Positions 20,311 through 21,917 of a DNA stretch of 64,000 bases are shown here, piece by piece. The stretch lies in the sequence record PP738763.1; one strand, written 5' to 3'. The notes under the pieces were generated by a model. That model saw nothing but the letters and a program-made list of their open reading frames with translations, ran no database searches and was not told where the DNA came from. Source of the stretch: Klebsiella phage vB_KpnM_Croc_ER14. Position 1 is the stretch's first letter. Each line of letters opens with the position of its first letter. The translations under genes and the position numbers were made by a program.

Positions 20311-20462
20311 TGGGAGAGTGCGCCGGGAATCGAACCCAGAGTCATCAGAACTTAGAAAGCTATGTGCATTTCACTTACGGTTCTGTGATTTTATTCTTCC
20401 TCAACTCCAGATTAAGAAACAGGGGCATGCACACCTTACTGTTCCCGCAGGAAGTCGCACCC
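20311..20462 (-). ncRNA. tRNA-like element, about 152 nt, CCA-terminated, with canonical T-arm but long internal insertion
   Basis: Minus-strand sense has T-arm CUGGG-UUCGAUU-CCCGG, acceptor pairing GGGUGCG/CGCACUC and 3' UCCCA. Length is twice a tRNA. No clean anticodon arm found. Confidence 0.35.
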
Positions 20463-20468
20463 ATAATT

Positions 20469-20542
20469 TGGAAGGAGCACCAGGATTCGAACCTGAGATC
20501 ATGGGATCAAAGCCCATTGCCTTACCGCTTGGCTATGCTCCT
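20469..20542 (-). tRNA. tRNA-Gln (anticodon UUG), 74 nt with encoded CCA
   Basis: Acceptor AGGAGCA/UGCUCCU, D-arm GCCAAGCGGUAAGGC, anticodon loop CUUUGAU, T-arm CAGGUUCGAAUCCUG. Close to E. coli tRNA-Gln. Confidence 0.85.
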
Positions 20543-20664
20543 GTAATTTGGTGAAGAGTTGCCTGCGTCACCAGGCTGGCTGTTCTGTCCATTTAAGGCT
20601 TGCAGCAGGAACAACACGGCTTCTCACCGTTGATCCCCCAAAGACTTGAGCACTCTTCATAATT

Positions 20665-20748
20665 TGGTGGGGGAGGGTAGATTCGAACTACCGAAGCCGA
20701 AACACCTGATTTACAGTCAGGCCCATTTGACCACTCTGGTACTCCCCC
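20665..20748 (-). tRNA. tRNA-Tyr (anticodon GUA), 84 nt, long variable arm, encoded CCA
   Basis: Acceptor GGGGGAG/CUCCCCC, anticodon stem-loop CCUGA CUGUAAA UCAGG, T-arm GGUAGUUCGAAUCUACC, discriminator A. Confidence 0.85.
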
Positions 20749-20753
20749 GAATT

Positions 20754-21017
20754 TGGACGGGCTTCTCACCCGATTGTGCATTTGATCTGCCGTAGCCCAA
20801 CTCCCCGCGTCGTAACGCCGATTGGTTAACCGGCAACCAGTGCCTTCTGGTTCGATCTCCTGGAACTTTACAGGCTTCGCGCCAAACCATTTCTGGTAGT
20901 TGGGGCATCGTTTCCGATGTGGAGTCACCCCATTTTTACACAGCTGGCTGCAACGCTTACTGTGTTTGTATCAGAGTGTCCGGTGTAGCATTCCGTGAGG
21001 TGCGCACTACTGTAGCC
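20754..21017 (-). ncRNA. about 264-nt CCA-terminated structured RNA candidate (not a canonical tRNA)
   Basis: Bounded by the recurring aattt-tgg punctuation. Ends in CCA on the minus strand. Contains several perfect local hairpins, e.g. cagagtgt/acactctg. No ORF. Confidence 0.3.
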
Positions 21018-21030
21018 TCTACACTCTGAA

Positions 21031-21137
21031 TTTGTATGAAGTGGGAATCACTCTCCTGGGTGTCTGTATCCTGCAACCTTACATTGGCAGCTATCGCGCG
21101 ATTCGCACTTCCGAAGGCGCTTCGAAACACTCCACTT
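21031..21137 (-). ncRNA. about 107-nt CCA-terminated structured RNA candidate
   Basis: 3' end UUCCCA. Internal hairpins (cgaag cgc cttcg; gcg aat cgc). Followed by an AAUU-containing trailer. Confidence 0.3.
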
Positions 21138-21142
21138 CAATT

Positions 21143-21216
21143 TGGTCCGGAACCCGGTTCTGGGCCACGCTTGAGGACATCGGCCATCCTTCCTCAGCTA
21201 ATCAACCGGGTTCCAG
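21143..21216 (-). ncRNA. 74-nt tRNA-sized, CCA-terminated element with acceptor-like closing stem but non-canonical D and T arms
   Basis: Closing stem CUGGAAC/GUUCCGG plus discriminator A plus CCA. No TPsiC or D-loop consensus. Confidence 0.3.
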
Positions 21217-21219
21217 ATT

Positions 21220-21333
21220 TGGTGGGTGTTACTTTCGTCGGTTTCAGATTCCGTTCGGCTATTGGACGTTGTTCCAAAGAACTTGTCGGTCGCGTACTTC
21301 GTGCTTACTCGCTTTCGTTTCACACCCATTGTC
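21220..21333 (-). ncRNA. about 114-nt CCA-terminated structured RNA candidate with acceptor-like closing stem GGGUGU/ACACCC
   Basis: Minus-strand sense begins GACAAUGGGUGUG and ends AACACCCACCA. Internal hairpins. No T-loop consensus. Confidence 0.3.
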
Positions 21334-21409
21334 TGGCGATGGTGGCAGGACTTGAACCTGCGACATATGGATTAACAGTCCACCGTTCTACCGACTGAAC
21401 TACACCATC
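21334..21409 (-). tRNA. tRNA-Asn (anticodon GUU), 76 nt with encoded CCA
   Basis: Acceptor GAUGGUG/CACCAUC, D-arm UAGUUCAGUCGGUAGAAC, anticodon stem-loop GUGGA CUGUUAA UCCAU, T-arm GCAGGUUCAAGUCCUGC. Near-identical arms to E. coli tRNA-Asn. Confidence 0.85.
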
Positions 21410-21416
21410 ATCAATT

Positions 21417-21502
21417 TGGCGGAAGATACAGGATTCGAACCTGTGCAACCTTTCGGTTGTACACCTTAGCAGGGTGCTGCAATACCGCTCTGCCAATCTT
21501 CC
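21417..21502 (-). tRNA. tRNA-Ser (anticodon GCU), 86 nt, long variable arm, encoded CCA
   Basis: Acceptor GGAAGAU/AUCUUCC, anticodon stem-loop GCACC CUGCUAA GGUGU, variable arm ACAACCGAAAGGUUGC, T-arm ACAGGUUCGAAUCCUGU. Confidence 0.8.
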
Positions 21503-21696
21503 TATTTATTCGCTTCTATGGCTCGAAGTTGCTTCTCAGCGTCTTCTTTGGAGTCATGTGTTCCCAAAACCTTTGTTTTGGTATGATCCAACACAACCCA
21601 ATGGTCACCACGCTTTTCAACAAACTCAACAATTTCTTTGTTGTCGGTCGCAAGACCATCCCATTCAGTTAAGAAATCACCGAACGTTTTCATCAT
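21502..21696 (-). CDS. small hydrophilic protein embedded in the tRNA cluster (64 aa from MMKTFGDF)
   Basis: Protein-like composition (KEIVEFVEKRGDHWVVLDHTKTKVLGTHDSKEDAEKQLRAIEANK). The track ORF begins at a TTG, so the first ATG pair was chosen. Confidence 0.4.
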   Translation of the reverse strand: MMKTFGDFLTEWDGLATDNKEIVEFVEKRGDHWVVLDHTKTKVLGTHDSKEDAEKQLRAIEANK

Positions 21697-21813
21697 ACTC
21701 ACCAATCGTTTATTGAACAACTGGTTTATTTAGGTGCTCCCAAGGCGGTATTTTAATCCCGCGATCCCATCTCGCCTGCCGTAGACCAGAGCTTGTTGGC
21801 AGTCCAACAAATT

Positions 21814-21917
21814 TGGCGGGGTCTGAGGCTTTTCACCTCACCTGCTGGATTGGCCTCCAGCCGTTCTATCTCGGGACTCGCCGTCCGGACAGCTATCCCT
21901 TAAACTATCGCCCCTTA
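21814..21917 (-). ncRNA. about 104-nt CCA-terminated hairpin-rich RNA candidate
   Basis: Sense begins GGGGCGAUAG and ends CAGACCCCGCCA. Local hairpins GUCC/GGAC, CUGGA..UCCAG, UGAGG..CCUCA. Followed by the AAUU trailer. Confidence 0.3.

Follow-up and report, generated by a model that had tools for sequence, protein, structure and literature searches.

tRNA-like RNA modules among the tRNA genes of Klebsiella phage vB_KpnM_Croc_ER14: conservation, covariation and spread between phage families

Klebsiella phage vB_KpnM_Croc_ER14 carries, on the minus strand of the 64,000-nucleotide (nt) stretch of DNA analysed here (sequence record PP738763.1; hereafter the window), a single terminator-ended array at 20235-21996, in which five transfer RNA (tRNA) genes and an open reading frame (ORF) of 64 amino acids are accompanied by eight non-tRNA modules, here termed E1-E8. 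Covariation across relatives reveals that the modules are under selection as folded RNAs, and their distribution that they are independent mobile cassettes. From the signals in the sequence, we consider it probable that E1-E8 are trans-acting stable RNAs, excised by tRNA-processing enzymes from the transcript of one tRNA and small-RNA operon.

The locus was first described in an earlier note, made without database searches, which reported at least six structured elements of 74-264 nt lying between tRNAs for Gln, Tyr, Asn, Ser and Met. All five tRNAs are confirmed by ARAGORN and Rfam. The elements number eight in the present segmentation, which we read from the minus-strand sequence, and their lengths become 62-209 nt. 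That they are structured RNAs other than tRNAs is borne out, given that default ARAGORN and Rfam are silent on them while covariation shows structural selection, and both the modules and the AAUU trailer described in the note are found in related phages.

Anatomy of the modules and their ends

All eight modules lie on the minus strand and are given here in array order. E1 (21814-21914; 101 nt) is closed by a helix of four base pairs (bp), GGGG/CCCC, and ends in G-CCA followed by AAUU; the last of its three internal hairpins reads GAGG[UGAAAAG]CCUC (loop in brackets), and its fold scores z = -2.45 against shuffles. E2 (21220-21327; 108 nt) is purine-rich, with a 6-bp closing helix (GGGUGU/ACACCC) and an A-CCA end. 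E3 (21143-21216; 74 nt) likewise ends in A-CCA, here followed by AAUU, and its 13-bp closing helix encloses a 44-nt core comprising a hairpin and a possible GGCC/GGCC pseudoknot (fold z = -3.26). E4 (21033-21138; 106 nt) is closed by 7 bp, GAAGUGG/CCACUUC, and terminates in AUACA followed by AAUU, while E5 (20967-21028; 62 nt) combines an 8-bp closing helix and an AUACA tail with an interior GAGG/CCUC helix and a possible GUAG/CUAC pseudoknot. E6 (20754-20962; 209 nt) has no terminal helix and ends in GUCCA; it includes an optional insert of ∼110 nt, and at its 3' end the hairpin CGGG[UGAGAAG]CCCG is followed by UCCA and AAUU. E7 (20549-20658; 110 nt), which ends in A-CCA and then AAUU, consists of four hairpins and a 7-bp closing helix, so that its topology is cloverleaf-like but with non-tRNA loops (a five-way junction). 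E8 (20311-20462; 152 nt), the last gene of the array, is tRNA-like, having a 7-bp acceptor, a discriminator U followed by CCA, two long arms and a canonical T-arm with a UUCGAUU loop.

Folding thus predicts a helix joining the two ends (4-13 bp) in seven of the eight modules, E6 being the exception, and the three closing helices named in the earlier note (GGGUGU/ACACCC, CUGGAAC/GUUCCGG and GGGUGCG/CGCACUC) are present and predicted. The note had further characterised the elements as CCA-terminated with an acceptor-like stem. This holds for five of the eight (E1, E2, E3, E7 and E8), but E4 and E5 end in ACA and E6 is unclosed; CCA is not a defining feature. An acceptor of tRNA type, with a helix of around 7 bp, a discriminator and CCA, is found in E7 and E8 (7 bp), E2 (6 bp) and E3 (13 bp). 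Among the seven closed modules, six have U at position -1 and six have G as their first base.

These ends resemble those on which RNase P acts outside tRNAs. Among the non-tRNA substrates with an RCCA end that it is known to cleave are 4.5S RNA, transfer-messenger RNA (tmRNA) and, from phages, the C4 and M3 RNAs, and a 3' RCCA matters for small model substrates (PMC11143913); minimal substrates must offer the enzyme this motif together with a helix abutting the 5' end (PMC11143913; PMC12710915). By sequence, the signals of such non-tRNA substrates (a helix at the cleavage site, 3' RCCA and U at -1) are present in the array, with GCCA in E1 and ACCA in E2, E3 and E7; E8 has UCCA.

On the plus strand, exact AATTTGG occurs at 20465, 20545, 20661, 20750, 21139, 21413 and 21810. 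The recurring aatttgg of the earlier note is therefore real, although four of its seven positions were off by one, the copy at 20545 was missed, and that at 21217 is GATTTGG (CCAAAUC). Seven of the 17 matches in the window fall, on one strand, within the 1.35 kilobases (kb) of 20465-21816, where ∼0.16 would be expected; the total of 17 against 14.9 expected shows that it is the clustering, rather than the motif, that is enriched. Among the tRNAs called by ARAGORN in the loci that we fetched, CCA followed by AAUU is the commonest trailer in Ackermannviridae (13 of 32), T4-like (11 of 20) and N4-like phages (5 of 18), and in T5-like loci (3 of 14) it ranks behind AACA; at -1, these phage tRNAs most often have U. 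The AAUU trailer does follow most modules, as the note had it, but because it is so common on ordinary tRNAs we regard it as characteristic of the tRNA genes of these phages in general and not as a mark of the modules. The trailer, A76-A↓A-U-U, fits RN↓WUU (arrow, cleavage site), which is the core motif of RNase E in vivo and comes from a study that also recovered established RNase E cleavages close to the 3' ends of tRNAs (PMC5222698).

One further element is common to three modules. A hairpin of the form NNGG[UGARAAG]CCNN is present, on the minus strand, in E7 (20616-20630), E6 (20758-20772) and E1 (21825-21839), and the window has no exact copy of GGTGARAAGCC beyond these three within the cluster. 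Two forms are conceivable for it, a T-loop-like loop of 7 nt or, with U.G as the closing pair, a boxB-like GNRA pentaloop, and it may mark a common protein or tertiary contact.

The modules are under selection as folded RNAs

The array region is 97-99% identical in Klebsiella phages of the genus Taipeivirus (Ackermannviridae) such as XDRKpn-1, FKP14 and T751, with remoter matches in Kuttervirus, Agtrevirus and Limestonevirus. Orthologues for comparison were taken from eight Ackermannviridae genomes beyond the closest Taipeivirus relatives, and from other phage families. E3 gives the clearest result. Across 11 distinct sequences its 13-bp helix is paired in all, with 12 of the 13 pairs changed on both sides, and the covariation score of the helix is 0.631, compared with 0.19 for shuffles (none of 500 reaching the observed value) and 0.03-0.09 for slid partners; the 44-nt core it encloses is almost invariant from Ackermannviridae to N4-like phages. 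The alignment of E7 supports 34 consensus pairs, 14 of them with compensatory changes, that of E8 (nine sequences) 39 pairs with 11 compensatory, both long arms covarying as helices, and that of E5 (nine sequences, T5-like and N4-like phages included) 15 pairs with five compensatory.

E4 has orthologues in Taipeivirus and in Vi01, where GAAGUAG/CUACUUC provides one compensatory pair, read directly from the sequences. The closing helix of E2 survives three different wobble changes among 11 distinct orthologues and is never broken. E1 is near-invariant in six distinct Ackermannviridae sequences, with two compensatory pairs, and E6 is conserved, short forms without the ∼110-nt insert occurring in LIMEstone1 and SeF6a.

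These data bear on the possibility that the array is a graveyard, in which tRNA pseudogenes decay alongside the scars of insertions, free of selection and retained only through a recombinogenic region. Features that might be relics do exist, namely the T-arm of E8, the cloverleaf-like topology of E7 and the T-loop-like 7-nt loops of E1, E6 and E7; relaxed ARAGORN gives weak pseudo-tRNA signals at 21696-21790, 22005-22077 and 23343-23414, and close relatives differ in the tRNA content of the cluster. Neutral decay breaks pairing, however, yet 99.6% of the cells in E3 are paired in spite of many two-sided changes, E7, E8 and E5 behave likewise, and identity of 80-100% is maintained over genera and families. 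Decay without selection is thus a highly improbable account, while a tRNA origin of some modules is possible and would be compatible with function.

The comparison of E7 copies also speaks to the annotation of these segments as genes for small proteins. Coding sequences (CDSs) are annotated over E7, E6, E5 and E3 in FKP14, K65_evo9, P184 and others, with short 'hypothetical protein' CDSs lying directly over E7, E6 and E5 in our fetched loci L026 (FKP14; 20368-20981), L004 (1526-1615) and L019 (1242-1325), and E7 does contain an ATG-initiated frame of 30 codons that is still open in a T4-like copy. Against this, copies of E7 differ by paired helix changes that alter amino acids, its conserved half is almost without third-position change, the ATG directly follows CCAAAUU with no Shine-Dalgarno sequence before it, and the annotated frames disagree between records and fall on both strands. 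We attach almost no probability to a coding role and, given that covariation indicates RNA genes, the CDSs over E7, E6 and E5 are probably annotation artefacts.

The modules move between genera and phage families

Both the order and the company of the modules vary. E1 follows tRNA-Met in the window but comes ahead of it in STW77 and LIMEstone1, E5 precedes E3 in the other Ackermannviridae genera, and slots are exchanged with tRNAs, Menlow having a tRNA-Arg at the place of E1. The extra tRNAs of relatives (a second Ser, Trp and Arg) are, in the GenBank records inspected, genuine tRNAs in other slots rather than versions of E1-E8. E8 is the last gene before the terminator in the window, STW77, MK-13 and SeF6a, and its BLAST matches are confined to Ackermannviridae save for two single outlier records. 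Relatives hold further modules of E8 type, with acceptor, T-arm and large insert. Another tRNA-like RNA that is no tRNA, absent from the window, is annotated as 'tRNA-OTHER' or 'tRNA-Pro' in STW77 (locus L014, 2667-2752, minus strand) and SeF6a (locus L017, ∼2665-2753, minus strand); it has an acceptor, a D-arm and a T-arm, but an aberrant anticodon region and an AAUCA end.

Three modules reach well beyond the family. E7 is found in Taipeivirus, in N4-like phages of Pectobacterium and Klebsiella, in T4-like phages of Klebsiella, Raoultella and Aeromonas, and in three metagenome contigs, and is missing from the other Ackermannviridae genera. All copies examined, the three metagenomic ones included, lie between co-oriented tRNAs, of which there are five different pairs (Tyr/Gln, Leu/Thr, Leu/Ser, Asn/Gln and Asp/Pro). 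E5 also occurs inside tRNA arrays of T5-like and N4-like Salmonella phages, and the E3 core in N4-like Gamaleyavirus phages, there without CCA. Across these genera and families module identity is 80-100%. A search with the E7 core pattern of 185,579 bacterial and archaeal genomes returned no true copy, the two matches being chance ones without flanking similarity (∼1 expected). In IMG/VR, the E3 core pattern gave 19 matches, apparently from the two phage groups already found, and a search by neighbouring proteins for divergent clusters gave five close relatives only.

This distribution matters for one of the roles suggested in the earlier note, processing punctuation, when taken as the only one: the modules would be spacers acting in cis, which present RNase P and RNase E sites or shield tRNAs from exonucleases, and are idle once released. 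The end signals of the modules are indeed the same as those of tRNAs, E6 resembles leader or spacer material, as does the segment 21697-21813, and the processing of polycistronic tRNA transcripts by RNase P and RNase E is context-dependent (PMC11143913, PMC5222698). A spacer, however, has no need of a conserved 44-nt core. The cores of E3, E5 and E7 persist in unrelated phage families while the flanking tRNAs, and even the sequence of the terminal helix, change; E3 is found in N4-like phages also away from any tRNA; and many tRNAs of the same clusters are spaced 3-10 nt apart without any module. Since the cores are conserved across unrelated phage families, we think that punctuation alone is a decidedly improbable role.

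The modules are neither tRNAs nor catalogued RNAs

Default ARAGORN, whether or not introns were allowed, called only the five tRNAs, leaving E1-E8 uncalled. Searching Rfam 15 at gathering score gave no match to E1-E8; relaxing the threshold to E ≤ 10 added over the modules nothing but weak matches far below gathering, such as tmRNA_permuted at 18.8 bits against 47, and the tRNA model (RF00005) did not match E1-E8 even at this threshold. As to tmRNA, default ARAGORN finds none, the tmRNA calls made under relaxed settings are implausible and permuted, and a short frame in E8 is lost in STW77. No module is annotated as RNA in the GenBank records inspected, and our literature search found no paper describing the E1-E8 RNAs, although some may be among the ∼10,000 candidate structured RNAs of viruses catalogued in 2023 (PMC10690425).

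E8 calls for separate consideration, as it (and perhaps others) could be taken for a tRNA that decodes, its extra length being an intron or the expansion of an arm. In favour of this are CCA, a canonical T-arm and an acceptor paired perfectly over 7 bp, and E8 is the only module called by ARAGORN when the score is relaxed and introns are allowed, as an intron-bearing tRNA; relaxed settings, which the earlier note had put forward as a check, give no consistent tRNA call but do not leave E8 aside. Under the same settings the identity assigned to its orthologues varies (Phe, Ser, His or Glu), as does the place of the intron, which measures 23-72 nt, and because identities and intron positions disagree among the calls we conclude that the E8 orthologues have no conserved anticodon loop. 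Moreover, E8 is uncalled at default settings even with introns allowed, the Rfam tRNA model has no match to it, and its long arms covary as helices, unlike an intron. Known bacterial and phage tRNA introns are, to our knowledge, group I introns and much longer, which also counts against an intron-bearing tRNA. That E8 decodes is, in our view, hardly credible.

A model for excision and action in trans

The preferred reading, that E1-E8 are processed, trans-acting RNAs, can be set out as follows, with the excision mechanism drawn from sequence signals and established enzymology. The minus strand from ∼21996 to 20235 would be one polycistronic operon, probably starting at a promoter further upstream. 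Most modules bear the end signals of a pre-tRNA, namely U at -1, G at +1, a terminal helix, a discriminator with CCA and an A↓AUU trailer, and we infer that the host tRNA-maturation machinery frees them as stable, separate RNAs. The 5' ends of the modules would be the work of RNase P, while RNase E would cleave a single base beyond CCA, at a site of RN↓WUU type, with exonucleases trimming back; the ACA, ACCU or AUCA tails might be repaired by the CCA-adding enzyme. The tRNA-like ends would then be excision adaptors, and each RNA would act in trans through its own conserved core, these acting cores being a hairpin with a possible pseudoknot in E3 and E5, the five-way junction in E7 and a T-arm-bearing tRNA mimic in E8.

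The target of the released RNAs would most likely be a protein. Compact conserved cores, together with a spread across phage families like that of accessory genes, suggest trans-acting, protein-binding RNAs, and the hairpin common to E1, E6 and E7 may likewise hint at protein binding. Our guess is that they are decoys or sponges for host factors that read tRNA acceptor ends or elbows, anti-phage tRNA-targeting toxins included. We consider the guess reasonable because RNAs of E8 type lack an anticodon arm but retain what RNase P and the CCA-adding enzyme recognise in a tRNA.

A number of observations weigh against this account. Our literature search found no Ackermannviridae phage transcriptome. 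The single-sequence fold of E2 is no better than that of shuffles (z = 0.16), those of E4-E7 are unremarkable (z of -0.6 to -1.2) and that of E8 likewise (z = -0.76). The alignments are small (6-11 distinct sequences) and partly of close relatives; pairing in the interior of E2 is weakly supported, with no convincing structure, and E1 is so nearly invariant that its fold is not confirmable by covariation. Nor are the ends uniform. CCA is not universal, in view of the ACA of E4 and E5 and the absence of a terminal helix from E6, whose CCA is not conserved either, the 3' end being GUCCU in three of eight sequences. The tail of E7 reads ACCA in Taipeivirus and in the T4-like phages of Klebsiella, N4-like phages have ACCU and F48 has AUCA, while E7 in Aeromonas phages has a helix of 11-15 bp and no such tail, and E3 in N4-like phages has its 13-bp helix without CCA, in one case without a nearby tRNA. 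E5, too, has variant tails (AUACA, AUUCA, AUCCA and AAACA). Because the ends vary while the cores persist, we take each family to be defined by its core, with terminal signals tuned to the local context.

Other features of the array and its surroundings

The five tRNAs, called alike by ARAGORN and Rfam, are all on the minus strand. tRNA-Met (CAU; 21921-21996) is the first canonical tRNA in the array and scores 70.9 bits with RF00005. tRNA-Ser (GCU; 21417-21502), tRNA-Tyr (GUA; 20665-20748) and tRNA-Gln (UUG; 20469-20542) each end in CCA followed by AAUU, and tRNA-Asn (GUU) occupies 21334-21409. The array is closed by a single intrinsic terminator just past E8 (20235-20258, minus strand), with a 10-bp stem, six of its pairs GC, followed by CUUUUUGUCU; a terminator is annotated at the equivalent place in phage Menlow. 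No long ORF is present within 20146-24601.

The small ORF (21502-21696, minus strand; 64 amino acids, MMKTFGDF...) has a stop codon that overlaps the first base of tRNA-Ser. It matches phrog_3684, a family of unknown function (E = 3.6e-25), whereas a Pfam search gave no family above threshold, and it is found in the cluster of three other genera (STW77, MK-13 and LIMEstone1). In FKP14 it is labelled 'RNA ligase', a label that nothing in our analysis supports, and it has no similarity to T4 57B, although both are so labelled in some records. The product could be a partner of the array RNAs. Between E1 and this ORF, the segment 21697-21813 (minus strand) is ∼93% conserved across genera; relaxed ARAGORN weakly calls a pseudo-tRNA at 21696-21790, and in STW77 tRNA-Met fills this slot. 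A tRNA may have decayed here and become the leader of the ORF.

Upstream of tRNA-Met, some 2.6 kb (22000-24600, minus strand) have no long ORF and many long-range helices. In one of these, CUUACAAG (22505-22498) pairs with CUUGUAAG (22474-22467), and in Salmonella phage STW77 both arms read CUUGCAAG, a compensatory change. Given this ORF-poor and helix-rich region, the RNA island extends over ∼4.4 kb rather than 1.6 kb. A sigma-70-like promoter candidate lies at 23933-23906. The same region contains, at 22594-22808 on the minus strand, a full-length match to Rfam STnc100 (RF02076; 53.2 bits, gathering score 47), including the conserved UGGUGAAU...CGGGAGGCACCCG.CACCA motif. STnc100 is described as a prophage-encoded small RNA family related to PasD (bioRxiv 10.64898/2026.05.13.724894), and its presence in a lytic Ackermannviridae phage is unexpected.

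Homing-endonuclease genes are annotated at or near the array in relatives. An HNH gene overlaps the tRNA-Met annotation in SeF6a (locus L017, 3588-4001), and F-LimX lies ∼1.5 kb from the array in LIMEstone1 (locus L016, 1-598), recalling segB within the T4 tRNA cluster. It is plausible that such enzymes drive the exchange of cassettes.

Relation to the T4 RNAs and other systems

The species 1 and 2 RNAs of T4 have been known since the 1970s and are still without a function. The earlier note had likened its elements to them, and the comparison is apt. Like E1-E8, T4 RNAC and RNAD are small non-tRNA RNAs encoded on the tRNA strand of a phage tRNA cluster. RNAD ends in CACCA (GCGCACCA) followed by AAUU, and CCA followed by AAUU is also seen in modules of the window. 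RNAC shares the architecture of E8, with an acceptor-like helix, two long arms and a canonical T-arm (fold z = -4.89), and also its position, given that RNAD and RNAC close the T4 cluster with RNAC last. There are differences: the RNAC acceptor is imperfect and ends in UACA, while that of E8 is perfect and ends in CCA, and there are eight modules here against two in T4, several of them in families shared with N4-, T5- and T4-like phages. The likeness does not extend to detectable homology. A covariance model of E8 gives RNAC 20.7 bits, a score equal to that of ordinary tRNAs, and blastn and nhmmer find only the 17-nt T-arm in common between E8 and RNAC; for RNAD, nhmmer gave no match, blastn none among the best 20, and the E7 model found nothing in the T4 locus. 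E1-E8 are thus, by analogy and not by detectable homology, the Ackermannviridae counterparts of the T4 species 1 and 2 RNAs. Both T4 RNAs build up during infection, and the literature still describes what they do as unknown (PMC3014915, PMC9697503).

Several other RNAs invite comparison. The non-tRNA substrates of RNase P (pre-4.5S RNA, tmRNA, P1/P7 C4, phi80 M3 and RCCA model hairpins) share the 5' helix and 3' RCCA, but the module cores are unrelated to them and have no Rfam match; E3, with a 13-bp helix and ACCA, comes close to the classical minihelix of ∼12 bp formed by acceptor and T-stem. YrlA (RF02553, one of the Y-RNA-like RNAs of bacteria and phages) and the tRNA-like domain of tmRNA are, like E8, non-decoding RNAs in which a T-arm- and acceptor-like part is set on a non-tRNA body. 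The termini of YrlA, however, sit in the Ro-binding stem and not in an acceptor, and its sole Rfam match in the window (E = 2.3) is over real tRNAs. GOLLD and ROOL are structured phage non-coding RNAs of unknown function, often located beside tRNA genes, but at 500-800 nt they are longer, belong to Gram-positive and rumen phages and lack tRNA-like ends; neither is among the Rfam matches of the window. Finally, the 3'ETS-leuZ sponge is a functional RNA that RNase E frees from a polycistronic tRNA transcript (PMC5222698). It differs in being an unstructured, Hfq-bound spacer fragment that acts by base-pairing, while the E-modules are compact and self-closed by helices.

Implications

The principle of small structured RNAs encoded among phage tRNAs is known from T4. 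What is new, to judge from our searches, is how many families there are, that Rfam lacks them, how strong the covariation is and that individual RNAs have moved between four phage groups. The locus suggests that the T4 species 1 and 2 RNAs are no mere curiosity of that phage, since in Ackermannviridae alone there are at least eight RNA modules of separate families, none of them in Rfam. Three of these families have crossed between four phage groups with their folds kept, a mobility expected of accessory, host-interaction functions, and phage tRNA clusters are known as sites that answer tRNA-targeting defences.

A broader reading, which we offer tentatively and judge rather unlikely, is that enterobacterial phages share a horizontally exchanged pool of RNA cassettes, each with a tRNA-like excision adaptor, whose RNAs are effectors of counter-defence or host takeover. 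Were this so, any cassette entering any tRNA array would be freed by host RNase P and RNase E, the effectors would be, for example, decoys for toxins or enzymes that read the tRNA acceptor end or elbow, or sponges for host RNA-binding proteins, and T4 RNAC and RNAD would gain a function by analogy.

On a practical level, many GenBank records carry spurious protein-coding genes over these RNAs, and Ackermannviridae are used in phage therapy of Klebsiella and Salmonella, where unexplained genes matter. With their defined helices and conserved cores, the families are compact targets (62-152 nt), and would offer a route to the question of what RNAC and RNAD do.

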